Virus record (IMG/VR): IMGVR_UViG_3300036951_000304
Source of the DNA: a virus
Lineage: Duplodnaviria > Heunggongvirae > Uroviricota > Caudoviricetes
Direction: 5' to 3' (one strand)
Length of the DNA: 64,000 nucleotides
Shown here: positions 1-8,767 of the stretch, in pieces
Numbering within the stretch: the stretch's first letter is position 1
Layout: every line of letters begins with the position of its first letter
Program-made: the position numbers and the translations under genes
The notes under the pieces: model-generated
What the model was told of the DNA's origin: nothing
Database searches by the model: none
The model's input: only the letters and a program-made list of their open reading frames with translations

Positions 1-111
1 ACCTTTTTATTTGCCACGGCCTGTGTATACACGGTTATGACCACATCAATCAAAACACCCGCAATAAAAACTAATATTAAATAAAAAAACAAACTCATAT
101 CACACATTTTC

Positions 112-185
112 TGGAGCGGGGTAAGGGAATTGAACCCTCGGCATCAGCTTGGAAGGCTGAGGTATTACCACTATACGAACCCCGC
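112..185 (-). tRNA. tRNA-Gly (anticodon UCC)
   Basis: CCA encoded (tgg 112-114), 7-bp acceptor gcggggt/accccgc, T-arm ggg-aattgaa-ccc, anticodon loop CUUCCAA. Confidence 0.75.
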
Positions 186-455
186 TTATTTTTTCTCAAA
201 ATCCGATGTTGGAAATCCCGTCCAAAGAAGAAAATAATTGGCTTCTTTTTCGGCAATCTTTGTGTTCAAACAGAACTTATTTTTCTTCAGATAAGAAACC
301 AACCACTTTCTGAATTGTTCTTCCTGCATCTTTGTCCATCTGTATTTCAGATACCATCTCTCTTTCTTTACTACGGAAGGATCATAAATGGCACCAACCA
401 TTTCAAACATCTTCGACAGGATTTCATCCAGATTTTTTTGTGTCAACTGCTTCAT
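186..455 (-). CDS. hypothetical protein (start trimmed to first Met after tRNA-Ile)
   Basis: ORF 186..554 overlaps tRNA 470-544; N-terminal part translates tRNA sequence, internal Met MKQLTQ at 455. Confidence 0.35.
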   Translation of the reverse strand: MKQLTQKNLDEILSKMFEMVGAIYDPSVVKKERWYLKYRWTKMQEEQFRKWLVSYLKKNKFCLNTKIAEKEANYFLLWTGFPTSDFEKK

Positions 456-469
456 AATAACTCCAATAT

Positions 470-544
470 TGGTAGCCGGGAGAGGAGTTGAACCTACCGT
501 CAAGCGATTATAAGTCGCACGTTCTACCATTGAACTACCCGGCC
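470..544 (-). tRNA. tRNA-Ile-like (anticodon UAU), weak T-stem
   Basis: tgg 470-472, acceptor agccggg/cccggcc, anticodon loop CUUAUAA; T-stem only 3 bp. Confidence 0.5.
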
Positions 545-552
545 ATATTTTC

Positions 553-667
553 AATCGGGGAACGGGGTCACGCCCGTTTCATAGGTTAGGGTCAACCATC
601 CTCTTTTCTGTCAGGTCAAGGCGGTCTATGAAACCCACTTCCATTATCGCTGACACGATACCCCGAT
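553..667 (-). ncRNA. long tRNA-like element (about 115 nt)
   Basis: perfect 7-bp acceptor pairing atcgggg (554-560) with ccccgat (661-667); T-arm-like aacggg-gtcacg-cccgtt; central region too long for canonical tRNA. Confidence 0.3.
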
Positions 668-672
668 ATTTC

Positions 673-758
673 TGGTGAGGAAGGTAGGATTTGCACCTAC
701 ACGCCCTTTCGAGCACAAGCCCCTCAGACTTGCGTGGCTGCTATTACACCACTTCCCC
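673..758 (-). tRNA. tRNA-Leu (anticodon GAG), class II
   Basis: 86 nt, CCA encoded, A73, anticodon loop CUGAGGG, 15-nt variable arm, T-arm gtagg-atttgca-cctac. Confidence 0.7.
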
Positions 759-760
759 AT

Positions 761-839
761 TGGTGCCGGAGGGGAGAGTCGAACTCCCACACTCCTAATT
801 TTAAGTCAGGAAGGTATGCCTAATTCCCTTCACTCCGGC
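761..839 (-). tRNA. tRNA with anticodon UAA (Leu-type) but short variable arm
   Basis: CCA encoded, acceptor gccggag/ctccggc, T-arm gggag-agtcgaa-ctccc, anticodon loop CUUAAAA, 12-nt D-loop, 5-nt variable region. Confidence 0.55.
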
Positions 840-1414
840 TAATCTATAAACTTTGTTTTATTTCCTTTTCTGATAACCGCCTCGATGGAAAACTCCCCGG
901 CCGCTATTACATATCTGTTATCTTTTATGTAATAACTGTAGTTATCGTCACACTTCTTCACATAAATTATATCATAATCCGTAAGATTGTCAATAATAAA
1001 TGGTATCAATCCTATTGTAACTGGCGGCTCATTTTTATCAATCACAAAGAACCATTTGTGATTTGCATTACCAGCAGAAGGTAGTGTCCTTCTCAATTCG
1101 AATAAATCACGATGAGGAACAAAAATAATGAGATATCCATCATCTCTCAATATTCTCCACCAGTTCTTTATTGCCACATCCGGTTTTTCCAAATCCTCAA
1201 GGCAATGTGACGAATATACGAAGTCATAAGTATTGTCCGGAATACCTTTCATATAAGTTGCATCGTGATCTTTACTGATGGATAGATCCCACATATCCAC
1301 ATCCGGAAGAATGGGGTCATTACCACAACCTATATCAATACCTCTTCCATTACAATACTTCTGGAAAAATCCCTCTTCGTGCCTTCTCTTTCTTGCTTTT
1401 CTTGTCTCGGCCAT
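839..1414 (-). CDS. class I SAM-dependent methyltransferase
   Basis: motif I GIDIGCGND, post-I acidic DVDMWD, DFVYSSHCLE, LRDDGYLII; stop overlaps tRNA 5' end by 1 nt. Confidence 0.6.
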   Translation of the reverse strand: MAETRKARKRRHEEGFFQKYCNGRGIDIGCGNDPILPDVDMWDLSISKDHDATYMKGIPDNTYDFVYSSHCLEDLEKPDVAIKNWWRILRDDGYLIIFVPHRDLFELRRTLPSAGNANHKWFFVIDKNEPPVTIGLIPFIIDNLTDYDIIYVKKCDDNYSYYIKDNRYVIAAGEFSIEAVIRKGNKTKFID

Positions 1415-1438
1415 ATCTGTTTTACTTCTATATATTTA

Positions 1439-1516
1439 TGGTGCCGGTGCAGGGAGTTGAACCCCGAAAACCTGCGTTCTAAGCGCAGTATGTATGCCAA
1501 GTTCCATCACACCGGC
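1439..1516 (-). tRNA. tRNA with anticodon UAG (Leu-type) but class I architecture
   Basis: CCA encoded, acceptor gccggtg/caccggc, anticodon stem CUGCG/CGCAG loop CUUAGAA, short variable region, atypical D-arm. Confidence 0.5.
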
Positions 1517-1524
1517 ATAAATTT

Positions 1525-1599
1525 TGGAGCGGATGAACGGATTTGAACCGTCAACCTTCTCGATGGCAACGAGATACTCTACCGTTGAGTTACATCCGC
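1525..1599 (-). tRNA. tRNA-Gly (anticodon GCC)
   Basis: CCA encoded, acceptor gcggatg/catccgc, anticodon stem UCUCG/CGAGA loop UUGCCAU. Confidence 0.7.
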
Positions 1600-1607
1600 A
1601 TATTTTC

Positions 1608-1690
1608 TGGAGCCGATGGAGGGAATCGAACCCCCACAGATTTCTCCGGCTGATTACAAATCAGCTGCCATACCATTAGGCGACATCGGC
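1608..1690 (-). tRNA. tRNA-like, anticodon UGU (Thr-type) with 13-nt variable region
   Basis: CCA encoded, acceptor gccgatg/catcggc, anticodon stem GCUGA/UCAGC loop UUUGUAA; 83 nt. Confidence 0.45.
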
Positions 1691-1697
1691 ATTATTC

Positions 1698-1774
1698 TGG
1701 AATGGGGCGCCCGAATCTAACGGGCTTCGGCATTTGAGCCTTGCTTCTCATAGCCAGTCCATACCAGACCCCAT
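1698..1774 (-). ncRNA. tRNA-like element, anticodon arm not resolvable (possible pseudo-tRNA)
   Basis: good acceptor (atggggt/gccccat) and T-arm gcccg-uuagauu-cgggc but no canonical anticodon stem-loop. Confidence 0.3.
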
Positions 1775-1782
1775 ATATTTAT

Positions 1783-1858
1783 TGGAGCCGGAAATCGGAT
1801 TTGAACCGATAATCTTGTCCTTACGAAAGACCTGCGTTTCCAGTTGCGCTATTCCGGC
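1783..1858 (-). tRNA. tRNA-Thr (anticodon CGU)
   Basis: CCA encoded, acceptor gccggaa/ttccggc, T-arm ucgga-uuugaac-cgau, anticodon loop UUCGUAA with 4-bp stem. Confidence 0.55.
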
Positions 1859-1860
1859 AT

Positions 1861-1937
1861 TGGTGGAGACAGGCGGAATTGAACCGCCGACCTCTTGCTC
1901 TTCAGGCAAGCGCTACTACCTACTGAGCTACATCTCC
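1861..1937 (-). tRNA. tRNA-Phe (anticodon GAA)
   Basis: CCA encoded, T-arm ggcgg-aattgaa-ccgcc, anticodon stem CUUGC/GCAAG loop CUGAAGA, D-arm GCUCAGUAGGUAG. Confidence 0.75.
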
Positions 1938-1940
1938 AAT

Positions 1941-2005
1941 ATTCCCGAGCGGGAATAACCGATAACATTTCTTCCGAAAAGAACCGAATTATTCCCGAGC
2001 GGGAA
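1941..2005. repeat. two copies of hairpin ttattcccgagcgggaa 49 bp apart
   Basis: identical 16-17 nt palindromic units at 1941-1957 and 1990-2006 downstream (minus sense) of the nucleotidyltransferase gene. Confidence 0.5.
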
Positions 2006-2108
2006 CTTTGTTCTATACGGGCTCCCATCCACGGCAGCCATGAGGACTAACCTGATGAGCCTCCCCATTCCTTGTAGGAATGGTCAGCGGGGCATCCCCT
2101 CAAACCCG

Positions 2109-2885
2109 TTATTTCAATAATAGTCTCCTTGCAACATCCATACAGAGTTCGTTTACTCTTACTCTGTCAGGAGAATGAGGAAGTGGAGATAACTCATACC
2201 ACCTTTCAAAGTCCTCATCAAACTTGGAAACATTCTCCATCAACTCATCGTAAGACCAGTATCCGTTTCTCAAAAAAACAAGAAACTCTGCTTCCGGTCT
2301 TGGAAAAGTAAGATTTCCGGTAAGTAACAGTTCCTTACCTTCATACATCAATCTCATCAGATGGGCAGCGTGTTTCGTATCATACCCAAACTTTTCCTCA
2401 AGGGCAAATCTTTCGGGATTTCTGTTTTTCTTCCAGAGTTCCCATGCTTCCCTTTCGGATTTATCGGTAGGAACAAAACCGTCCATCCATCTTTTATGGT
2501 TCTTCAACCTCTTGAGCTGAGAATGAGCATATCCTGAGAAAGTGTGTTTTGCTTTCTTGGAAAGAAAAGCATCTCTCACTTTCAGAACATCAAACCACTC
2601 ATCAGAATGGTTCAACCATTTATCTTCAGGAACAAAAAGCAACTCGACCATATTCGGGTTACAGTCAAGAGTAAGTTTCAGGAACTTTCTGAACTCATAA
2701 AAAACCTTGTCCTGTTTCTTATCCTCAACCTGTTCAACCCTGTCAAGAAAGCCGAGCCAGTATCTTTCCGGTGCAAGGAACACACCCCTTTCATCCACAT
2801 CAGAAGTTTCCGTTGCGGTTCCGTAAAGATGACTTCCGGCTACAGTCCTGAACAATAACTTGTAATCACTTGGTAGTCCTAACAT
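2109..2885 (-). CDS. pol-beta superfamily nucleotidyltransferase (minimal NTase-like)
   Basis: GSHLYGTATETSDVDERGVF = GS..Y..(n)..SD.D nucleotidyltransferase signature near N-terminus. Confidence 0.55.
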   Translation of the reverse strand: MLGLPSDYKLLFRTVAGSHLYGTATETSDVDERGVFLAPERYWLGFLDRVEQVEDKKQDKVFYEFRKFLKLTLDCNPNMVELLFVPEDKWLNHSDEWFDVLKVRDAFLSKKAKHTFSGYAHSQLKRLKNHKRWMDGFVPTDKSEREAWELWKKNRNPERFALEEKFGYDTKHAAHLMRLMYEGKELLLTGNLTFPRPEAEFLVFLRNGYWSYDELMENVSKFDEDFERWYELSPLPHSPDRVRVNELCMDVARRLLLK

Positions 2886-2890
2886 TTTAT

Positions 2891-3472
2891 TTACCTTTCC
2901 TCTTTATAAGGTCTTATCCAATCATTGTAGTTATAATTCAATGTTGGAAAATTTTTCTTGATATGATTTACAAAAGCCATTATCTCCTGTAATTCAACCG
3001 GATAAAATTTCCACCAATCAACACCTACATTGATGAGGATATTTCCTCTTTTTGTATCATTCCAAGTTATCCACTTTGCTCTCCAATTCAAGTGAACGTG
3101 AGCAACAAGGTTGATATTGATATCCCTGTTTATGTGTCTTGGATCGTGGACACAATACAAAAGATTATTTCCGTTTCTCAAAGTGAGATTCTCAATTTTT
3201 GTCTTGAGCCCGTTGTTTTTATCGTGGTTTCCCCTGATAAAAACCTTGTCACCATTCAGCCTCTCAATATAATAATCCACTCTGTTACATTCATTGAAAG
3301 CAAAATCTCCAACAAATATAACGGTGTCCTTTGGTTTCACCCTTTCGTTCCAGTTCCTTATCAAAACCCTATCCATCTTTTCCACGGTCTTGAAAGGCCT
3401 GTTGCAGAAACCAATCATATCTTCGTGACCGAAGTGAGTATCCGCTGTTATAAATGTTCTTCCCATTTTCAA
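2891..3472 (-). CDS. calcineurin-like metallophosphoesterase
   Basis: motifs DTHFGH, GDFAFNE, GNHD (IRGNHDKN), HVHL typical of MPP superfamily. Confidence 0.65.
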   Translation of the reverse strand: MKMGRTFITADTHFGHEDMIGFCNRPFKTVEKMDRVLIRNWNERVKPKDTVIFVGDFAFNECNRVDYYIERLNGDKVFIRGNHDKNNGLKTKIENLTLRNGNNLLYCVHDPRHINRDININLVAHVHLNWRAKWITWNDTKRGNILINVGVDWWKFYPVELQEIMAFVNHIKKNFPTLNYNYNDWIRPYKEER

Positions 3473-3476
3473 TCCT

Positions 3477-3552
3477 TGGTGGAGCGTGAGAGACTTGAAC
3501 TCTCGACCCCAAGACTGCCAGCCTTGTGCTCTCCCAACTGAGCTAACGCCCC
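3477..3552 (-). tRNA. tRNA-Ala (anticodon GGC), G3-U70
   Basis: CCA encoded, acceptor GGGGCGU with G3-U70 wobble, T-arm gagag-acuugaa-cucuc, anticodon loop CUGGCAG. Confidence 0.6.
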
Positions 3553-3555
3553 ATT

Positions 3556-3849
3556 CTATTCAATTACAAATAATTCATCCGGTAAAAATTCCTCAGCAGT
3601 TACTACCTTCCCCGTACTCGCGTACCAGATACTAAAACCCAAATCTTTTAATTGTAATGCCTGTTCCTTCGTCATATTTACCCTGTATGACAAACTATTG
3701 GTTCCCGTGATAGTATCCATAAAGTCAACAATGTCTTTTGCTTCTTTCAGACCAAGAGAAAGCACAGACCTCAACTCCTTGATGACTTGTATTTTCATGA
3801 GGTTACCATTCGGTCTTACATTTTTGTATATGTAAAAATCGTGATACAT
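3556..3849 (-). CDS. ribosomal protein bL12 (L7/L12) C-terminal-domain-like protein lacking the N-terminal L10-binding domain
   Basis: [24 protein letters not shown] matches the L7/L12 CTD core [24 protein letters not shown]; start trimmed to Met after tRNA-Glu overlap. Confidence 0.65.
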   Translation of the reverse strand: [97 protein letters not shown]

Positions 3850-3860
3850 ATTCTTTCCTC

Positions 3861-3935
3861 TGGTACTCCCAAAGAGATTTGAACTCATATTTCCGGCGTG
3901 AGAGGCCAGCGTCCTAACCATTAGACGATGGGAGC
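3861..3935 (-). tRNA. tRNA-Glu (anticodon CUC)
   Basis: CCA encoded, acceptor GCUCCCA/UGGGAGU (G1-U72), anticodon stem CUGGC/GCCGG loop CUCUCAC. Confidence 0.6.
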
Positions 3936-4005
3936 AAAAATTGTATAATTAGGCATAGTATGTCGAAAATCTCTCGACCTTCTGTGCCTCTTTCGACACT
4001 TTTTA

Positions 4006-4081
4006 TGGCGGGCCTTGAAGGATTTCAACCCTCATCTGCTTGTTTTGGAGACAAGTGTGTTTGCGTTTACACCAAAGACCC
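4006..4081 (-). tRNA. tRNA-Trp (anticodon CCA)
   Basis: CCA encoded, acceptor GGGUCUU/AAGGCCC, anticodon stem CUUGU/ACAAG loop CUCCAAA. Confidence 0.7.
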
Positions 4082-4094
4082 GTATTTTATAAAA

Positions 4095-4182
4095 ATTGTA
4101 TCAACGGAATTGAACCGTCCACCACCGCCAAATGACGGAGCTTCAGACCACTAATCGGCACATACGTTTGCCTTTGATACAA
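4095..4182 (-). ncRNA. class-II-length tRNA-like (88 nt), anticodon arm unresolved, CCA not encoded
   Basis: perfect acceptor ttgtatc/gatacaa, T-arm gacgg-uucaauu-ccguu; central 56 nt does not give canonical anticodon arm by eye. Confidence 0.35.
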
Positions 4183-4191
4183 CTTTATTTT

Positions 4192-4267
4192 TGGTGGGTA
4201 TGACAGGATTTGAACCTGCGCTCTATCGGTTAAGAGCCGATTGCATTTGCCACTTTGCTACATACCC
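4192..4267 (-). tRNA. tRNA-Lys (anticodon CUU)
   Basis: CCA encoded, acceptor gggtatg/cataccc, anticodon stem AUCGG/CCGAU loop CUCUUAA. Confidence 0.7.
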
Positions 4268-4276
4268 ACATATTTT

Positions 4277-4351
4277 TGGTGAAGCCGAAGGGAATTGAAC
4301 CCTCAACCTACTGGTTAAAAGCCAGTTGCTCTACCGTTGAGCTACGACCTC
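4277..4351 (-). tRNA. tRNA-Lys (anticodon UUU)
   Basis: CCA encoded, anticodon stem ACUGG/CCAGU loop CUUUUAA, acceptor pairs with two wobbles. Confidence 0.7.
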
Positions 4352-4359
4352 ATATTTCG

Positions 4360-4469
4360 TGGGATGTGGTAGGATTATACCTACTGGCATCACTATTTTA
4401 TAGGGATAAAAAGTTGGCATCCCTATAGAGTGCCCCTTCAGGCCTTACCAACATCGTAGCTCACATCCC
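4360..4469 (-). ncRNA. long tRNA-like element (about 110 nt) with internal 9-bp hairpin
   Basis: terminal pairing gggatgtg (4361-4368) with cacatccc (4462-4469), T-arm-like gtagg-attata-cctac, inner hairpin tatagggat..atccctata. Confidence 0.3.
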
Positions 4470-4474
4470 ATATA

Positions 4475-4552
4475 TGGTAGACCCGACGAGATTTGAACTC
4501 GCAATCTCCACCTTGAAAGGGTGGCGGCATAATCCGTTTCGCCTACGGGTCT
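4475..4552 (-). tRNA. tRNA-Glu (anticodon UUC)
   Basis: CCA encoded, acceptor agacccg/cgggtct, anticodon stem CCACC/GGUGG loop CUUUCAA. Confidence 0.7.
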
Positions 4553-4637
4553 ATATTTTGGAGGGCGGTTTATTCTCATTAACCTACGGATTACCGCGGC
4601 ATCCGGTGGGGCTTTAACCCACATCTCCCATATTTTC

Positions 4638-4713
4638 TGGAGGGCCCGATGGGAATTGCACCCACAATCTACGGTTTTGCAGACCGTCGCCTTAGCTATT
4701 TGGCCACGAGCCC
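4638..4713 (-). tRNA. tRNA-Cys (anticodon GCA)
   Basis: CCA encoded, anticodon stem ACGGU/ACCGU loop CUGCAAA, T-arm with aauugca loop. Confidence 0.7.
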
Positions 4714-4718
4714 ATTAA

Positions 4719-4830
4719 GTGTAGATGCTTGCAAGTCATCTACACAGAACCGATTTTCACGGTTCTCTCTTTCCATAGGTTGATGAACGGTTATGATTTC
4801 CCGTTCCGTTCCCTATGGCGTGATGGAAGA
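4719..4830. other. nested stable hairpins in spacer between tRNA-Cys and tRNA-Asp
   Basis: 9-bp stem gtgtagatg/catctacac, 7-bp agaaccg/cggttct, 7-bp ccatagg/cctatgg enclosing gaacgg/ccgttc. Confidence 0.45.
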
Positions 4831-4844
4831 GTACCACCAAGTTC

Positions 4845-4920
4845 TGGCGACCTTGATGGGAGTTGCACCCACGCCTACTTGATTGACAGTCAAGTGCTCT
4901 GGCTACTAAGCTACAAGGCC
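4845..4920 (-). tRNA. tRNA-Asp (anticodon GUC)
   Basis: CCA encoded, anticodon stem CUUGA/UCAAG loop CUGUCAA. Confidence 0.7.
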
Positions 4921-5044
4921 ATTCTATAGATGGGTAGGTTTCCAACCCTACTGGACGGTGTTTACCCTCTTGTGTGACCAAGCTTTAGTAGAAGCCCACA
5001 ATACTATCAACCGTTACTGATACTACTATATCACCATCTATTTT

Positions 5045-5121
5045 TGGGGTGACAGACGGGAATCGAACCCGCTCCTTACAGGGGCCACAACCCTGTGCCT
5101 CACCATTTGGCTTCTGCCACC
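5045..5121 (-). tRNA. tRNA-His (anticodon GUG) with encoded G-1
   Basis: CCA encoded, anticodon stem CAGGG/CCCUG loop UUGUGGC, extra 5' G (from c5121) opposite C73 discriminator. Confidence 0.75.
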
Positions 5122-5129
5122 ATATATTT

Positions 5130-5219
5130 TGGTGGGAGATGGAGGAGTTGAACCACCCGTCTGCCGCCCCACATAATTATAGACAACGGTTTTACAGACC
5201 GCCGTGGGGAACATCTCCC
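5130..5219 (-). tRNA. tRNA-Tyr-like (anticodon loop CUGUAAA, GUA), 90 nt, atypical D/variable regions
   Basis: CCA encoded, perfect acceptor gggagat/atctccc, T-arm, anticodon loop identical to bacterial tRNA-Tyr; D-arm region shortened and variable region very long. Confidence 0.5.
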
Positions 5220-5226
5220 GTGTTTT

Positions 5227-5299
5227 TGGTAGCGGGTGAGGGAATCGAACCCCCTGAACCTTGGTTATGAGCCATGGCGAGATACCAATCTTACCCGCG
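5227..5299 (-). tRNA. tRNA-Met or Ile2 (anticodon CAU) with C1-U72 mismatch
   Basis: CCA encoded, acceptor CGCGGGU/ACCCGCU, anticodon loop CUCAUAA. Confidence 0.6.
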
Positions 5300-5380
5300 A
5301 AAATCCCGCCCGGGGAATTGAAGGAACCTTATTCTAACGATGTTATACATCGTGCTGGATTCGATACCAGCATCACCGGG
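5300..5380 (-). ncRNA. degenerate tRNA-like spacer element
   Basis: flanked by conserved inter-tRNA motifs, contains ggaattgaagg T-loop-like sequence but stems do not pair; hairpin gctgg-tatcgaat-ccagc. Confidence 0.2.
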
Positions 5381-5386
5381 ATATTT

Positions 5387-5463
5387 TGGTGGAGCGTGAG
5401 AGATTCGAACTCTCTGCCTTCTCGGTGCAAGCGAGATGCTCTCCCATAGTGAGCTAACGCCCC
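5387..5463 (-). tRNA. tRNA-Ala (anticodon UGC), G3-U70
   Basis: CCA encoded, acceptor GGGGCGU G3-U70, perfect T-arm gagag-auucgaa-cucuc, anticodon stem UCUCG/CGAGA loop CUUGCAC. Confidence 0.75.
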
Positions 5464-5561
5464 ATATTTTTTCTGGGCGTGGTGATGGCCGGTATTGGAC
5501 ATAAGTTTTATCCGGCTTCCTCCTCACATTTCTGCAATCACCACGACATTTTTTTACAGAT

Positions 5562-5672
5562 TGACATTATCCCATTCCTAATCACTCTACCGCGCACTCC
5601 CGGTTTCCGGCCGGCGGCTCGTCATAGATTCAATATAGTCACAGAAATAATCTCGAGCGCCAATCTGTATAT
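5562..5672. repeat. structured spacer element copy A (paralog of 6228-6298)
   Basis: terminal 8-bp stem acagattg/caatctgt, contains agaTTGACAttatccc and GC-rich inner hairpins ccgg-ttt-ccgg, ccggccgg. Confidence 0.5.
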
Positions 5673-5686
5673 TCTGTTTTCAAAGA

Positions 5687-5762
5687 TGGTAGAATCGGCG
5701 GGAGTTGAACCCACGACCTTTGCCGTGTCAGGGCAACGCTCTCCCAACTGAGCTACGATTCT
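5687..5762 (-). tRNA. tRNA-Val (anticodon GAC)
   Basis: CCA encoded, canonical D-arm UAGCUCAGUUGGGAGAGC, anticodon stem UUGCC/GGCAA loop CUGACAC. Confidence 0.75.
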
Positions 5763-5858
5763 ATAGTGAGTAAGGTGTTTTCGTTGTGGTTATCCTCACT
5801 CATTACCACACCATTACATATAGGGCTCTTACCGCCTATATGAGTAATTCATAGAGGT

Positions 5859-5960
5859 GTTGTCAGGTGGGAGTTGAACCCACATTTCCTTTATGGAAGT
5901 GTCCGCCGCGCGACGAATTTACTTCCTCAAAGTTGTCCTATCCATTAGACGAACTGACCA
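5859..5960 (-). ncRNA. long tRNA-like element (about 100 nt); anticodon arm replaced by 12-bp hairpin with 20-nt loop
   Basis: acceptor ttgtcag/ctgacca, T-arm gtggg-agttgaa-cccac, D-arm-like GUCU..GGAC, long hairpin CUUUGAGGAAGU...ACUUCCAUAAAG. Confidence 0.3.
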
Positions 5961-5997
5961 AGGCGTTCCGGACTACCTTGTTTACACCTATATTTTC

Positions 5998-6073
5998 TGG
6001 TAGCCGGTGAGGGAATTGAACCCCCGGCCCTCACGGTGTAAACGTGATGCTCTCCCAATTGAGCTAACCGGCT
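5998..6073 (-). tRNA. tRNA-Val (anticodon UAC)
   Basis: CCA encoded, acceptor agccggt/accggct, anticodon stem UCACG/CGUGA loop UUUACAC. Confidence 0.75.
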
Positions 6074-6077
6074 ATAT

Positions 6078-6213
6078 AAAGAGGTTGTAGCATATACATC
6101 GTATACTATGTAATATGTGTCTAACTCTTATCTACTTCGTATCCCTTGCAATCAGGCTACAGGTCAGCCCGGCCTCAGGCTGACATTCGATGAAGTGTTT
6201 CCACTCACAACCT
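6078..6213. other. structured spacer with long-range inverted repeat and inner hairpin
   Basis: aagaggttg (6079-6087) pairs caacctct (6204-6211); inner stem gtcagcc/ggctgac. Confidence 0.35.
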
Positions 6214-6227
6214 CTATATTTTGTGTA

Positions 6228-6298
6228 GATTGACATTACCCTGTTACGAGGTGACGCCCCCATTTGTAACAGTAATAATTCCGGACGCCAATCTACAT
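6228..6298. repeat. structured spacer element copy B (paralog of 5562-5672)
   Basis: terminal stem gtagattgac/gccaatctac, contains TTGACAttaccc, inner 7-bp hairpin ctgttac/gtaacag. Confidence 0.5.
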
Positions 6299-6300
6299 TC

Positions 6301-6376
6301 TGGTCGGAGAGACAGGATTTGAACCTGCGACTTCTTGATCCCAAGTCAAGCACGCTACCATCTGCGCCACTCTCCG
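6301..6376 (-). tRNA. tRNA-Pro (anticodon UGG)
   Basis: CCA encoded, acceptor cggagag/ctctccg, anticodon stem CUUGA/UCAAG loop CUUGGGA. Confidence 0.75.
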
Positions 6377-6379
6377 ATA

Positions 6380-6440
6380 TTTTTCAAAGAACAAAAACAA
6401 AAAAGGGAGATTGAGTCAAAACCCAATCTCCCTTCAATAA
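6380..6440 (-). terminator. rho-independent terminator (minus strand)
   Basis: 9-bp stem gggagattg/caatctccc followed on minus strand by TTTTTTGTTTTTG. Confidence 0.6.
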
Positions 6441-6639
6441 TTCTACTCTATAGGATTTGACTCTTCTATTCTATAGTGCCCCCCTCTGCTGGCTTTGTTT
6501 CAATCGCAAGGCTCGGCACTAAATAAAACCAACAATCTTTATGTAGAAAATATTTCGTCATAGAATCCTCTGAAATTATATGTCAATATTATATATGTAA
6601 ATTATAACACAGTTTACATAGAATGTAAACAATTTTTTC

Positions 6640-6713
6640 TGGCTCCGGTAAATGGAATCGAACCAATAACTAATGGTTAACAGCCATTCGTGATACCGTT
6701 TCACCATACCGGA
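6640..6713 (-). tRNA. tRNA-Asn (anticodon GUU)
   Basis: CCA encoded, acceptor tccggta/taccgga, anticodon stem AAUGG/CCAUU loop CUGUUAA. Confidence 0.7.
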
Positions 6714-6996
6714 ATGTGTTTCCTGCTGGCCACCAGTTATTCCCTCGCTGGGGTGGCTCCACGGCGGCGAGGCCAGATGTTGTCAGGACAGGAAACGGTG
6801 ACAACCCACGGATTATAATAAAGAGGGCGAACAGATGGAATGGCGGTTCCTCTGTTCCTTACGAGTTCGTTCAACTTGCCGCAACAAGTTCATCTCTACT
6901 ACCCTCTAAATTTTCAAAGAATACGACATATCATATCATAATACGGTATCCCTGTCAAGAAAAATGTTTCTCAATAATTTCAATGACTTACGCAAT

Positions 6997-7051
6997 AAAA
7001 AAGGGCAGTATCTCCTTTACTTCGTAGGGGGCTTATACTGCCCTTTGGCAA
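6997..7051. terminator. bidirectional rho-independent terminator downstream of tmRNA
   Basis: 9-bp stem gggcagtat/atactgccc flanked by aaaaaa upstream and ttt downstream on plus strand. Confidence 0.6.
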
Positions 7052-7107
7052 GATTCTATGAAAAGAATCGCTCGCCCTTCATTATATGACCCCCTCATTG
7101 TTATTTA

Positions 7108-7470
7108 TGGTGGAGGTGGCCGGAATCGAACCGGCGTCCAAAAGCCCCGATAAATCAGGTGAATTACACGCTTCTCTGTTTGTTGCGGTCAATTCGATGC
7201 TCCTAACAGAAAACCGATACATCAAATCCAGTTTCTTTATTACCGTGAAATAGGCGAAACAACCTATTTTCCCGGCTCCCCATTGATTTGAACAATTTCC
7301 AACCCCGATGGAGAGGAGAGTATGAAAATTGTGGGCGGTTAACTAAGCCGCCATTGCGTAACTATAACTGTAGTCTGCGCTTATATGATAATCAGTTGAT
7401 AACGGAGCCGATGATTATCTCCGGCGTGCGCCTGAAGTACCAAAACCTCTGTCGAAGCCTGTGCACCCCC
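7108..7470 (-). ncRNA. ssrA: tmRNA (SsrA-like) with tag reading frame ADYSYSYAMAA-UAG
   Basis: 5' GGGGGUGCACAGGCUUCGAC resembles tmRNA 5' GGGGCUG..GGAUUCGAC; 3' tRNA-like end GCCGG-UUCGAUU-CCGGC-CACCUCC-A-CCA; acceptor G3-U70; internal ORF GCA GAC UAC AGU UAU AGU UAC GCA AUG GCG GCU UAG. Confidence 0.75.
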
Positions 7471-7491
7471 AAATTTTCAAGGAACGATTGT

Positions 7492-7520
7492 ATTCTATCA
7501 CATATTTATGGCGATGTAAA
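7492..7520 (-). promoter_or_regulatory. sigma70-like promoter for tmRNA (minus strand)
   Basis: minus-strand TTTACA-17 bp-TAGAAT about 24 nt upstream of tmRNA 5' end. Confidence 0.5.
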
Positions 7521-7537
7521 TAAAAATATCGAAAATG

Positions 7538-7566
7538 TTTACATTTCAATGTTTTTCTGGTATAAT
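7538..7566 (+). promoter_or_regulatory. sigma70-like promoter with extended -10
   Basis: TTTACA (7538-7543) 17-bp spacer ending TGG then TATAAT (7561-7566); 31 nt upstream of HU start. Confidence 0.65.
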
Positions 7567-7597
7567 AAATCAAAAATCTATGAAAGGAGAAAACCGT

Positions 7598-7873
7598 ATG
7601 AACAGGAAAGTTTTGTCAGACTTCGTTTCAAATGATATGAGTATTACCAAGACCGATGCTAAACTTGCCGTTGATTCTGTAGTTTCTGGTATTCTGAACG
7701 GTCTTATGAAAGGCGAAAAGGTTTCCTTGATGGGTCTGGGCACTTTCTATACATTGAATATGCCAGAGAGAAAAATCAGAAACCCGAAAACGGGGGAACA
7801 AATCACCGTTGCGCCCAAGAAAGTCATCAAATTCAAAGCATCAAAACTACTCAAGAAAGAATTGAATAAGTAA
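7598..7873 (+). CDS. HU/IHF-family histone-like DNA-binding protein
   Basis: MNRKVLSDF..GEKVSLMGLGTFYTLNMPERKIRNPKTGEQITVAPKKVIKFKASKLLK matches HU arm region; RBS aaaggag; start set to Met at 7598 inside ORF 7535..7873. Confidence 0.75.
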   Translation: MNRKVLSDFVSNDMSITKTDAKLAVDSVVSGILNGLMKGEKVSLMGLGTFYTLNMPERKIRNPKTGEQITVAPKKVIKFKASKLLKKELNK

Positions 7874-7876
7874 AAT

Positions 7877-8767
7877 ATGGAAACAAAAATCTGGACATTT
7901 GCGTATGAACCTCAAAAATTTGAGGATATAATATTGAATGATGTGGTGAAGCCGAGATTACAGAAGGCCTTGACCGAAATACCCAATCTGATGTTGGTGG
8001 GCCCGCCCGGAGTTGGTAAGGGAACCTATACAAATATCTTTCTGAAGGAAACAAAACTCGATTTTATCAAATTGAATTGTTCCGATGAAACATCAATTGA
8101 TGGTATCAGGACGAAGGTGAAATCATTTGCTACGGCCCTCGGCGTGACCAAGATGAAAATCGTTGTAATGAACGAAAGTGACTATCTCAGCCCAGCGGCC
8201 CAGGCAATGCTAAGGGATTTGATAGAGCAGGTGGAAGGTATTACAAGATTCATCTTCCAATGTAACTACGGTCACAAGATGATAAAAGAAATCCAATCGA
8301 GATGCCAGGTTATCGAGTTGACCAATCCACCCGCCAAAGAAATCTATCAGCATTGTATGGATATACTGAAGAAGGAAGGTGTGAAGGTGGGAGACACAAA
8401 AGCCATTGTGACCATCATCAAGCAATTGTACCCCGATATCAGAAAAATCATTCATACTTTACAAATGAATACTATTGATGGTAAAATAGATGGTATCAAA
8501 GTGGATGAAGTATCAGAGATACATTTCCAGATATTCAAGGCAGCCCAAGAGAAAAATCTGGATGATATCAGAAAACTCTTGAGAGGACATTCAATCAATT
8601 ATCCCGATTTGTATCTTCATTTCTATGAAAGCGCGGGAAAATTGAAAAGTCCTGGCGACGCCATCCTAGCAATAGGAGAATACCTTTATAGAGACAGCCT
8701 TGTGGCAAACAAGGAAATCAATTTTATGACGATGGTTGTTTCCCTTATAAAGAAGGGAGTTCTATGA
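7877..8767 (+). CDS. clamp loader ATPase subunit (T4 gp44-like AAA+)
   Basis: Walker A MLVGPPGVGKGTY, Walker B-like VVMNESD, sensor motifs; adjacent to putative clamp. Confidence 0.7.
   Translation: METKIWTFAYEPQKFEDIILNDVVKPRLQKALTEIPNLMLVGPPGVGKGTYTNIFLKETKLDFIKLNCSDETSIDGIRTKVKSFATALGVTKMKIVVMNESDYLSPAAQAMLRDLIEQVEGITRFIFQCNYGHKMIKEIQSRCQVIELTNPPAKEIYQHCMDILKKEGVKVGDTKAIVTIIKQLYPDIRKIIHTLQMNTIDGKIDGIKVDEVSEIHFQIFKAAQEKNLDDIRKLLRGHSINYPDLYLHFYESAGKLKSPGDAILAIGEYLYRDSLVANKEINFMTMVVSLIKKGVL

Follow-up and report, generated by a model that had tools for sequence, protein, structure and literature searches.

Putative non-decoding tRNA-like small RNAs in a phage tRNA array

The tRNA cluster of phage T4 contains two small stable RNAs, rnaC (species 1, 139 nt) and rnaD (species 2, 119 nt), whose function is not known (PMC3014915; PMC12685909). 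RNase P cleaves some of the YrlA-type Y RNAs, which mimic the D-arm, T-arm, and acceptor arm of tRNA, and the cleaved RNAs also acquire CCA (PMC4201824). In OLE RNA, P6 holds a copy of the 16S 3' tail paired to an SD-like strand and acts as a bS21-bound SD/anti-SD mimic (PMC12054373).

As in T4, the 64,000-nt stretch of phage DNA analyzed here (the window) appears to carry small-RNA units inside a tRNA array, which is probably a single long transcript. Three over-long elements had been described there as one tRNA-like family: E1 (553-667), E2 (4360-4469), and E3 (5859-5960). All three are present, on the minus strand shared with the 27 genes called by ARAGORN, and the non-tRNA units have the same orientation as 24 tRNAs and a tmRNA. 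An (A)AAUAU leader precedes nearly all units of the array, tRNA or not. No sigma-70-like promoter was found adjoining E1, E2, or E3, and only one minus-strand terminator is convincing, upstream of tRNA-Pro. Proteins encoded in the array include RlaP, a metallophosphoesterase, and a methyltransferase (Pfam scans of ORFs); RlaP puts one or two nucleotides onto damaged RNA 3' ends and restores repaired tRNA (PMC12776372).

Architecture of the tRNA-like units

E1, 553-667, minus strand: acceptor-like helix of 7 bp (661-667 with 554-560), hairpin at 645-660, T-like hairpin at 561-578
E1, 626-634 with 576-584, minus strand: possible 9-bp helix
E2, 4360-4469, minus strand: acceptor-like helix of 8 bp (4462-4469 with 4361-4368), T-like hairpin at 4369-4384
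E2, 4399-4427, minus strand: hairpin B, with loop GCCAACUUUUU at 4408-4418

The elements are not class II tRNAs misread by eye. ARAGORN at default settings calls none of the three (0/3). In an 8-kb Rfam scan no family, tRNA and tRNA-Sec included, matches them at E<=1, and in short stretches around E3 and 4095-4182 these two models give no match at E<=10 either. Partial, sub-threshold Rfam matches comprise 17 nt of the tmRNA T-arm and a Tymo_tRNA-like match scoring 16 bits (threshold 40).

E1, E2, and E3 have in common a terminal acceptor-like helix beside a T-arm-like hairpin on the 3' side, an oversized interior, and the absence of a 7-nt anticodon loop. The predicted 7-bp acceptor pairing is perfect in E1 (ATCGGGG/CCCCGAT) and extends to 8 bp without mismatch in E2 (GGGATGTG/CACATCCC), but in E3 it carries a G.A mismatch. 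Of the predicted T-arms that of E3 is canonical (GTGGG-TTCAACT-CCCAC), while the hairpins of E1 (AACGGG-CGTGAC-CCCGTT) and E2 (GTAGG-TATAAT-CCTAC, adjoining the terminal pairing) are present with non-canonical T-loops. Because of these loops and the missing RCCA, E1 and E2 may be weaker RNase P substrates.

The proposal of a single family did not hold up: no similarity was detected among the elements, and a covariance model of E3 (R1), which recovers just three copies, matches neither E1 nor E2. Only E3 (z 4.7) and 4095-4182 (z 5.0) significantly resemble tRNAs of this phage in sequence. E1, E2, and E3 are alike in build but not in sequence, and do not form a single homologous family.

E2 folds better than all 200 of its shuffles (z-score -3.4; 0/200 fold as well), and GUUGG (within 4443-4455) may pair with CCAAC in a possible pseudoknot. 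In the related phage L011, a homolog at 7575-7698 has retained its ends, GUUGG, GCCAACUUUU, and the T-like hairpin, in which a compensatory change turns A-U into G-C, within an otherwise diverged sequence; this comparison covers two sequences, as an IMG/VR search returned no E2 copy beyond the window and L011. E1 has a marginal fold z-score (-2.0; 6/200 shuffles as good), no homolog found, and no significant similarity to the phage's tRNAs. As such a singleton, E1 may be junk.

Four further units of the array have unusual or tRNA-sized structures:

4096-4182, minus strand: class-II-shaped tRNA-like RNA with 7-bp acceptor, long variable arm, and canonical T-arm, without CCA
5130-5219, minus strand: tRNA-Tyr(GUA) with encoded CCA; about 8 nt replace the D-arm, variable region of 25 nt
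1698-1774, minus strand: tRNA-sized unit with 7-bp acceptor, T-arm GCCCG-UUAGAUU-CGGGC, and discriminator U followed by CCA
4559-4629, minus strand: three-hairpin unit of about 70 nt, 96% conserved in L011

Unusual cores had been predicted for the first two, correctly in both cases. In 4096-4182, the D-arm is without GG, and 16 nt stand where a tRNA has 20, best folded as a 4-bp/4-nt mini-hairpin that replaces the anticodon arm. The L011 homolog is 84% identical; its substitutions all fall in loops or preserve pairing, and three pairs are changed on both sides. The 5130-5219 unit, which lacks a D-arm and has a U.U mismatch in its T-stem, is nonetheless a tRNA-Tyr, as ARAGORN calls its homolog in L014. 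The 1698-1774 unit, not flagged previously, has no recognizable D or anticodon arm and is missed by ARAGORN and Rfam. In 4559-4629, the loop CCGCGG is replaced by CUGCAG, and the palindrome is kept.

A strict scan for minihelices (a mismatch-free 7-bp acceptor set directly against a GC-rich 5-bp stem whose loop has 6-7 nt) returned 18 tRNAs, E2, 4096-4182, and 1702-1774 on the minus strand of 1-7107, with one artifact, an alternative 5' pairing onto tRNA-Leu(taa); E1 and E3 do not pass. The plus strand of the same region gave no match, and the background elsewhere in the window is 0.05-0.12 per kb. The three matches in the non-tRNA part of the array thus compare with about 0.3-0.6 predicted.

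Structure and conservation of E3

E3 is the firmest case, with a predicted L-shaped tRNA-like core, a long rod, and flanks resembling 16S rRNA. The conserved unit exceeds the 5859-5960 interval originally predicted, adding a GGTGT/ACACC helix and a 5' hairpin:

5855-5989, minus strand: full conserved unit, 135 nt; tRNA-like core, extended rod for the anticodon arm, invariant flanks
5984-5988 with 5856-5860, minus strand: closing helix P0, GGUGU/ACACC, invariant in three lineages
5959-5980, minus strand: 5' hairpin Px, CAAGGUAGUCCGGAACGCCUUG, within a 33-nt, 100% invariant, 16S-like block
5954-5958 with 5862-5866, minus strand: acceptor-like helix P1, with two double-sided changes and one wobble change
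5935-5950, minus strand: D-arm GUCU-AAUGGAUA-GGAC with G18G19, read from sequence; invariant
5889-5932, minus strand: long arm replacing the anticodon arm; 11 bp, internal loop, 5 bp, GCGC tetraloop
5867-5883, minus strand: canonical T-arm GUGGG-UUCAACU-CCCAC, seen by Rfam only as the 17-nt tmRNA T-arm fragment

Homologs with 83-89% identity occur in L002/L011 and in L004/L014, giving three lineages in all. Across these, 98.4% of cells in the 43 pairs are paired, compared with about 47% in slid controls, and 7 of the 43 pairs show double-sided (compensatory) changes, five of them in the long arm (helices 5 and 6). Both the D and T loops are canonical. The 12-bp hairpin predicted in place of the anticodon arm is essentially right (11 pairs and one A.A), but the supposed 20-nt loop folds into 5 further pairs topped by an invariant GCGC tetraloop (5908-5911), yielding a rod of about 17 bp. 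The acceptor-like helix is only 5 bp long and a hairpin splits it; the RNase P cleavage site is not predictable.

The invariant flanks are collinear with roughly the final 50 nt of 16S rRNA from Bacteroidota (post hoc test, family-wise p ~0.005), and they look like the 3' end of the host's 16S rRNA. AACACCU is conserved in E3, but the CCUCC core is not. By analogy, the closing helix AGGUGU:ACACCU together with these flanks could be read as mimicking an SD/anti-SD duplex; a search of the window turned up no bS21 gene.

Candidate roles of the units

The acceptor/T-arm "top half" of tRNA is what end-processing enzymes recognize, RNase P for the 5' end and either RNase Z or exonucleases for the 3' end. 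On balance, we favor the reading that each flagged locus is a gene of its own for a structured, non-decoding small RNA, which tRNA-processing enzymes would excise and which would serve as a stable decoy or mimic of RNAs used in translation. Each unit would retain the tRNA top half, with the D and anticodon half swapped for something else. The units would be co-transcribed with the tRNAs, as suggested by the common strand, the AAAUAU-type leader, and the lack of their own promoters and terminators, and, by analogy with T4 species 1 RNA, they may be cut out via their minihelix ends as tRNAs are and accumulate as stable RNAs. Because the anticodon loop and an encoded CCA are both absent (E1, E2, E3, and 4096-4182 have no CCA, which is encoded by 25/25 canonical tRNAs of the array), such RNAs cannot decode. 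They might instead act in trans, binding proteins that recognize RNAs of the translation machinery, which would complement the supply of tRNAs and the tRNA-repair genes (RlaP, phosphoesterase, methyltransferase). A reading as tRNA-derived non-decoding RNAs fits E3 and 4095-4182, with their compensatory changes, these two alone being similar to tRNAs; the earlier suggestion of decoys for anticodon nucleases does not fit, since a 7-nt anticodon loop closed by a 5-bp stem is present in none of the elements.

The units could alternatively be decaying tRNA pseudogenes or recombination scars, that is, duplicated tRNA genes with insertions that drift without function. Array order does vary among lineages, as does the presence of individual units: E1 is missing in L011, with 9 nt separating tRNA-Ile(tat) from tRNA-Leu(gag), and the equivalent gaps in L014 and L048 hold different units. 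The marginal fold of the homolog-less E1 and the degenerate look of the D-arm-less tRNA-Tyr would also suit decay. Such drift is nevertheless an unlikely explanation, given that the helices of E3 and 4096-4182 are all kept by compensatory changes, that both are conserved at 84-89% versus 75-83% for nearby coding DNA, that the 33-nt E3 block is 100% invariant while clamp loaders of the same lineages are 68-84% identical, and that E2 keeps its motifs within a diverged body. We give similarly little weight to a purely cis-acting role with no function in trans, as processing punctuation or insulators of the polycistronic array or as small mobile palindromic elements. Leaders or spacers of identical type flank every cassette, E3 and 4559-4629 have palindromic loops (GCGC and CCGG in the former), and a long palindromic hairpin (3936-4005) recurs at another array position in L048, so mobile hairpins do exist in these arrays. 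However, E2 and E3 each lie between two tRNAs with their own processing signals, making extra punctuation unneeded, and the invariant single-stranded and loop sequence of E3 is more than a cleavage signal requires. The many G.U pairs in the helices (A.C mismatches on the other strand) and the one-stranded minihelix signal argue for structure at the RNA rather than the DNA level.

That the units are functional decoding tRNAs of non-canonical build, for instance with a short intron that RNA cleavage and repair enzymes of phage or host take out, or with post-transcriptional CCA addition, is very improbable. The array does encode RNA repair enzymes, tRNA-Ser is missing in ~72 kb that cover the other 19 amino acids, and an intron-aware ARAGORN run at relaxed threshold fits E3 to a tRNA-Gly(UCC) carrying an insert of 29 nt and 4094-4183 to a tRNA-Thr(GGU). 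Yet that run returned many spurious calls and, among the three elements, called E3 alone, which speaks against the short introns once proposed; the implied anticodon is UCC in the window and UCA in L014, a shift explained by a compensatory G-C to U-A pair in an E3 helix, and the window already has a tRNA-Gly(UCC). The 4096-4182 unit, besides its shortened anticodon region, has a discriminator base that varies between lineages, and the window yielded neither a CCA-adding enzyme (by tblastn) nor a ligase (in Pfam scans of 19 ORFs). Least credible of all is a YrlA-type mimic partnering a phage Ro60/Rsr in an RNA-repair or decay module. Related phages L042-L046 carry Ro60/TROVE next to RlaP, the relative L006 also encodes it, and YrlA RNAs are tRNA mimics and possible RNase P substrates, but the 64-kb window has no TROVE gene, the Rfam YrlA model matches only below threshold, across two ordinary tRNAs, and the Ro-binding motif GNCGAAN0-1G is unconserved in E3 (present-like in L011 only, absent in the window and L014).

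Comparison with known systems

Like the tRNA-like domain of tmRNA, viral TLSs (TYMV 3' TLS), and mascRNA, the units would reuse the acceptor/T-arm half in a non-decoding RNA, be it for processing or to be recognized by tRNA enzymes; tmRNA and the TYMV TLS are, in contrast, aminoacylated and CCA-ended, and the window's elements match them in Rfam only partially and below threshold. YrlA-type Y RNAs (RF02553) are similarly non-decoding, ~100 nt long, built on a tRNA-like D/T/acceptor module, and tied to RNA-repair loci, but they differ in their Ro60 association, Ro motif, and Rfam assignment, and in topology, with termini exiting via the "anticodon" side rather than, as here, the acceptor side. 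OLE is a 600-nt Bacillota RNA that matches the CCUCC core, whereas E3 keeps AACACCU only and its putative mimicry is read from sequence.

The closest known analog is T4 rnaC. No sequence similarity was found between rnaC or rnaD and the window's elements, and T4 carries two of them, placed where its 8-tRNA cluster ends, compared with at least six units interspersed here among more than 25 tRNAs; the intact D/T elbow, rod-like arm, and 16S-like flanks of E3 are not described for the T4 RNAs. Both T4 RNAs nevertheless lie on the tRNA strand and directly abut tRNA genes, and rnaC is itself an over-long tRNA-like unit: its canonical T-arm (CCGGG-UUCGAAU-CCCGG) precedes 7 nt that pair 91 nt upstream, and it passes the strict minihelix scan as do E2 and 4096-4182.

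The tRNA array and its gene context

The first 7500 nt of the window (1-7500) form a dense array of RNA genes on the minus strand, with 23 tRNAs called by ARAGORN and a tmRNA at 7108-7470; two more tRNAs, a tRNA-Tyr and a tRNA-Met (5227-5299), were overlooked by the program. An NCCA terminus is encoded in all 25 canonical tRNAs of the array, and an (A)AAUAU leader precedes almost every unit, whether tRNA or non-tRNA. The sole convincing minus-strand terminator lies upstream of tRNA-Pro. Four ORFs are also found inside the array, and the genes downstream of it include a clamp loader of T4 type and a ribonucleotide reductase. The features considered here are as follows.

553-667, minus strand: E1, an elongated tRNA-like element
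839-1414, minus strand: methyltransferase ORF
1698-1774, minus strand: tRNA-sized unit with a perfect 7-bp acceptor, the T-arm GCCCG-UUAGAUU-CGGGC, discriminator U and an encoded CCA
2109-2885, minus strand: RlaP nucleotidyltransferase ORF
2891-3472, minus strand: metallophosphoesterase ORF
3556-3921: L7/L12-like ORF
4096-4182, minus strand: class-II-shaped tRNA-like RNA
4360-4469, minus strand: E2, an elongated tRNA-like element
4559-4629, minus strand: unit of about 70 nt with three hairpins
5130-5219, minus strand: the sole tRNA-Tyr(GUA) seen in this phage
5855-5989, minus strand: E3, an elongated tRNA-like element

The methyltransferase, RlaP and metallophosphoesterase genes (839-3472, minus strand) make up a tRNA-repair-like set within the array. 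RlaP adds 1 or 2 nt to damaged RNA 3' ends, restoring repaired tRNA (PMC12776372). The related contigs L011, L014, L048 and L114 all keep the phosphoesterase-RlaP cluster together with the L12-like gene upstream of it. No RNA ligase domain was detected among the 19 ORFs of the 64-kb window scanned against Pfam, and tblastn found neither a CCA-adding enzyme nor bS21 in the window.

Together with those on L039, a contig extending past the window start, the tRNAs of window 1-7500 cover 19 amino acids. In ~72 kb from this phage, and likewise in the L011 and L014 arrays, tRNA-Ser was not found, and besides the Leu and Tyr tRNAs a long variable arm (Ser-, Leu- or Tyr-type) occurs only in the anticodon-less unit 4096-4182. 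The tRNA-Tyr(GUA) has no D-arm, though its L011 homologue has one; about 8 nt join its acceptor and anticodon stems, its T-stem contains a U.U mismatch, and its variable region of 25 nt could pair with the linker (CCCC/GGGG).

Several gaps between tRNAs hold features of their own. An ORF-free gap of 394 nt from tmRNA to tRNA-Asn (6714-7107, minus strand) is predicted to be strongly structured, contains a sigma-70-like promoter close to consensus (6958-6930), shows partial conservation in L011 and L013, and gave no Rfam match. From tRNA-Asn to tRNA-Pro, the block at 6402-6629 (minus strand; 80% conserved in L011) combines a 31-codon ORF (MTKYFLHKDCWFYLVPSLAIETKPAEGGTIE) with a promoter close to consensus (6629-6601) and a strong intrinsic terminator (6435-6402). 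The tRNA-Glu/tRNA-Trp gap contains, at 3936-4005, a long hairpin that is a near-perfect palindrome (UUGUAUAAUUAGGCAUAGUAUGUCG...). A copy in L048 (3251-3312) follows tRNA-Thr(tgt), and the hairpin is apparently a mobile element within arrays. In a second family of repeat elements, the conserved ends (A)GAUUGGCG...UAAUGUCAAUCU pair in a closing helix around an interior of varying length (74 vs about 120 nt); two members are in the window, at 6229-6297 and about 5560-5670 (minus strand), and one is in L014 (about 7406-7441).

None of the deposited phages is close to that of the window. Relatives were collected by protein-anchored searches (clamp loader, RlaP), contig look-ups and pattern scans, which yielded only three array-bearing lineages: the window's own genome, all of whose contigs are identical; L002/L003/L011, with 84% clamp loader identity to the window; and L004/L014, with 68%. 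L048 is a fragment of a fourth. The arrays are syntenic yet reshuffled across lineages. A Bacteroidales MAG bin includes a contig of one relative. The phage of the window is distantly T4-like, and its host probably belongs to Bacteroidales. Scans of IMG/VR with patterns for the E1 helix and the E2 ends gave chance matches only, while a motif from the unit at 4095 and an E3 20-mer returned known contigs and nothing further. A single genome_contigs match (Shiella), sitting within an apparent protein-coding region, was dismissed as chance.

Other contigs show departures from this arrangement. In L115-L119, whose clamp loaders are about 62% identical, the region upstream of the clamp loader has no tRNA array and holds a CCA-adding-enzyme-like gene (PolyA_pol plus HD) instead. 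In L036 (1-8950), the junction between the phage array and bacterial genes (gltX, rpmF, acpP, fabF, glyA, riboflavin genes and nusB) falls precisely on the tRNA-Glu(ctc) 5' end; the contig is either an assembly chimera via a tRNA-Glu that both share, or a hint at the host or at an integration site. In the related lineage L042 (5277-5801, 13457-13680), a Ro60/TROVE gene adjoins RlaP, and upstream a GGUGGCG(N)AG(N3)GAGGAUACUUCAUAC motif occurs three times, likely representing Y-RNA genes overlooked by Rfam; a HEARO RNA (161 bits) adjoins an HNH/RRXRR gene in the same lineage.

Architecture and identity of the non-canonical units

E1, E2 and E3 lie on the tRNA strand at the positions where the original prediction had placed them. 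A strict minihelix scan required a 7-bp acceptor and, directly after it, a GC-rich stem of 5 bp closing a loop of 6-7 nt; a first, over-permissive version, with 969 matches, was discarded. On the minus strand of the array the strict scan returned 18 tRNAs, E2, 4096-4182, a new unit at 1702-1774 and one artefact overlapping tRNA-Leu(taa), compared with 0 matches on the plus strand and 0.05-0.12 per kb in the remainder of the window. By these counts the minihelix architecture is enriched on the array strand. E1 and E3 match it loosely, under relaxed criteria only.

The terminal pairing claimed for E1 and E2 is indeed perfect (7 bp and 8 bp, respectively). The T-arm-like hairpins also attributed to the elements exist in part: in E1 and E2 a hairpin abuts the 3' strand, giving helix-plus-hairpin geometry only, and the loops are non-canonical and not T-loops, whereas in E3 both the D-arm and the T-arm are canonical, with the acceptor helix on the T-arm and the D/T elbow nucleotides present (D-loop GG, T-loop UUCRA). 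The unit 4096-4182 has the acceptor/T-arm stack and the elbow features, the D-loop GG excepted. The 5-bp/7-nt anticodon arm (U33, purine 37) is absent from both, with a 4-bp stem and 4-nt loop in 4096-4182 and, in E3, a continuous rod in which an internal loop separates 11 pairs from 5 further pairs capped by a GCGC tetraloop. This rod is what had been described for E3 as a 12-bp hairpin with a 20-nt loop. Minimum free energy folds of E1 and E2 likewise contain no 5-bp/7-nt anticodon arm. The 3' tails are without CCA (E1, ...GAU-UGA; E2, ...CCC-ACGA; E3, ...CAA-CACC; 4096-4182, ...CAA-UUUU).

Similarity to the phage's own tRNAs is confined to E3 (z 4.7) and 4096-4182 (z 5.0); E1, E2, 1702-1774 and 4559-4629 have no sequence resemblance to them. 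An all-against-all BLAST of the inter-tRNA gaps and a covariance model of E3 found E1, E2 and E3 mutually unrelated. Because the units share no sequence, and the E3 model, apart from weak matches to ordinary tRNAs, recovers only the three copies of E3, we regard them as an architectural class and not as a homologous family. Overall, the original observation is partly confirmed, and its interpretation partly supported.

Several known identities were compared with these elements. Ordinary class II tRNAs misfolded by eye were the original prediction's own counter-explanation, and this reading fails because ARAGORN in default mode makes no call for E1, E2, E3 or 4096-4182 and the Rfam tRNA and tRNA-Sec models detect none: Rfam 15 gave no match on these four over 1-8000 at E<=1, and RF00005 and RF01852, run on 100-160-nt stretches around E3 and 4096-4182 only, gave nothing at E<=10. 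Intron-containing tRNAs had also been proposed, and E3 alone is called by ARAGORN -i, at a relaxed threshold with many false positives. The implied anticodon varies, being UCC in the window and UCA in the same register of L014, where the stem is broken; a compensatory pair explains the base that varies. Decoys for anticodon nucleases, at least in any simple sense, are argued against by the units themselves, which display no anticodon loop.

Two further RNA classes were considered and rejected. For Y RNA (YrlA), no Ro60 was matched in the window by tblastn with a relative's TROVE protein, RF02553 gave no match, and the GNCGAAN0-1G strand that defines the Y RNA motif (PMC4201824) is not conserved. 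Self-cleaving ribozymes (hammerhead, HDV-like, twister, pistol, hatchet) have no Rfam match at E<=1 over 1-8000, and a hammerhead-like CUGAUGAG at about 2051 is on the opposite strand with no matching core.

The individual units differ in their conservation. E2 is about 70% identical overall in L011, where its terminal helix, T-like hairpin, GUUGG and GCCAACUUUU loop are all kept; the equivalent gap of L014 holds a different RNA with the same build. E2 adjoins tRNA-Lys(UUU) and has CUUUU in its conserved loop, features that would fit a descendant or decoy of that tRNA, yet it is not significantly similar to any of the phage tRNAs, and we rejected this origin as well as an anticodon-stem-loop mimic for the loop. 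E1 is missing from L011, where a plain 9-nt spacer separates tRNA-Ile(tat) from tRNA-Leu(gag); neither BLAST of the inter-tRNA gaps nor the IMG/VR pattern scans found a homologue, and E1 may well be a decaying remnant. The unit 4096-4182 is 84% conserved in L011, with each difference either in a loop or pair-preserving and 3 pairs altered on both sides.

The unit 4559-4629 is 96% conserved in L011 (about 7865-7936), with all three substitutions in one 9-nt loop, where CCGCGG becomes CUGCAG and the 6-nt palindrome is retained. The loops of E3 also include palindromes (GCGC, CCGG), and together these may indicate kissing-loop dimerisation or binding of a dimeric protein. An 11-mer that 4559-4629 shares with the 16S 530 loop, GCCGCGGUAAU, is not conserved in L011; we therefore consider the match to be chance and rejected mimicry of that loop. 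Finally, 1698-1774, which was overlooked by ARAGORN, Rfam and the original prediction, has no recognisable D arm or anticodon arm and is not conserved at the equivalent position of L011 or L048.

E3 and the 3' end of 16S rRNA

E3 is present in three lineages at 83-89% identity, and its conserved unit exceeds the span first reported (5859-5960), adding a closing helix and a 5' hairpin. With 43 base pairs specified in 7 helices across the three sequences, 98.4% of cells are paired, against about 47% with partners slid, and 7 pairs are altered on both sides, every one of them within the long arm or the acceptor-like helix. No variation is seen in the D-arm, the T-arm, the GCGC loop or the 33 nt that include and surround the 5' hairpin. 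E3 is well supported as a new RNA family, and structure is clearly under selection in at least two of the set, E3 and 4096-4182.

The invariant flanks of E3, 32 nt on the 5' side (AGGUGUAAACAAGGUAGUCCGGAACGCCUUGG, 5958-5989) and the 3' tail (CAACACCUCUAUG, 5849-5861), are collinear with the 3'-terminal ~50 nt of Bacteroidota 16S rRNA, comprising the post-h44 linker, the h45 region and the AACACCU tail. The Bacteroidota form of this 3' end, AAGUCGUAACAAGGUAGCCGUACCGGAAGGUGCGGCUGGAACACCUCCUUUCU, is 100% identical in Prevotella, Segatella, Bacteroides, Parabacteroides and Phocaeicola records. The likeness was tested post hoc, after the tRNA-like core of E3 had been excised. Slid over both strands of a real Prevotella rRNA operon (4298 windows), the flanks scored best, at 35, at the 16S 3' end, compared with a background mean of 7.5 (sd 3.3, maximum 21), and 1/200 family-wise shuffles reached this score. 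Dinucleotide shuffles reached the score at the true 16S site in 0/3000 cases; with the real 3' end of E. coli 16S as the target, 3/2000 shuffles did so. E3 sides with Bacteroidota at all three aligned positions where Bacteroidota and E. coli differ.

Other observations bear on the same comparison. An unbiased local alignment at full length is not significant, the predicted 5' hairpin pairs CAAGGU with GCCUUG in a register other than that of h45, and the anti-SD core CCUCC is not conserved in the tail, where AACACCU alone is kept. The other array units, compared with the full rRNA operon, gave short chance-level matches only. We treat the likeness as a statistically supported lead and not as a finding.

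A speculative and, in our estimation, rather unlikely reading of this lead is that E3 is a chimeric mimic, in which an anticodon-less, L-shaped tRNA body is combined with a copy of the 3'-terminal domain of host (Bacteroidota) 16S rRNA and titrates a host factor for the 30S 3' minor domain. The copy would run from the h44-h45 linker through a shortened form of the h45 region to the AACACCU tail, itself engaged in an SD/anti-SD-like helix, and the RNA would be made alongside the phage's own tRNAs, tmRNA and tRNA-repair enzymes. Candidate targets are bS21, KsgA, Era, RbfA or a ribotoxin cutting 16S near its 3' end. Under the chimeric-mimic reading, E2, 4096-4182, 1698-1774 and 4559-4629 would be further decoys in a repertoire of phage-encoded translation-RNA decoys. 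A non-coding RNA that imitates the 16S tail in an SD/anti-SD-like helix has been described in OLE RNA, whose P6 binds bS21 (PMC12054373).

Proposed mechanism and comparison with the T4 small RNAs

For the units as a whole, we narrowly favor a mechanism in which they would be transcribed together with the tRNAs, cut out by the tRNA-processing machinery via their tRNA-like ends, and would persist as stable RNAs unable to decode. They would then act in trans, mimicking translation RNAs and binding host or phage proteins. E3 provides a concrete handle on function: its tRNA elbow is intact, a rod stands where the anticodon arm would be, its invariant flanks are 16S-like, and tRNA-repair genes lie nearby. 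If the units are decoys or sponges for tRNA or 30S 3' domain factors, they would constitute an RNA-based layer in the phage-host conflict over translation, and would suggest a possible role for the T4 RNAs rnaC and rnaD. The array also illustrates that tRNA finders leave genuine structured RNA genes of phage arrays unannotated.

Small stable RNAs in the T4 tRNA cluster have been known since the 1970s. No role has been assigned to rnaC or rnaD (PMC3014915; PMC12685909). A distant-mode BLAST of 400-7600 against 50,697 phage records gave tRNA matches only, with none to rnaC or rnaD. Like the units described here, these two RNAs are encoded within a phage tRNA cluster, share the strand of the tRNA genes and abut them. 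rnaC ends in a canonical T-arm; the 7-nt strand after it finds its pairing partner 91 nt upstream, and in the T4 sequence (L087, 1411-1501) it passes the same strict scan as E2 and 4096-4182, being likewise over-long with an acceptor-like helix beside a T-arm. The phage of the window bears a whole set of such T4-type tRNA-cluster small RNAs, none of them in Rfam. They belong to the same kind as rnaC and rnaD, a known kind of phage RNA, but are more numerous and have no sequence relationship to those two.
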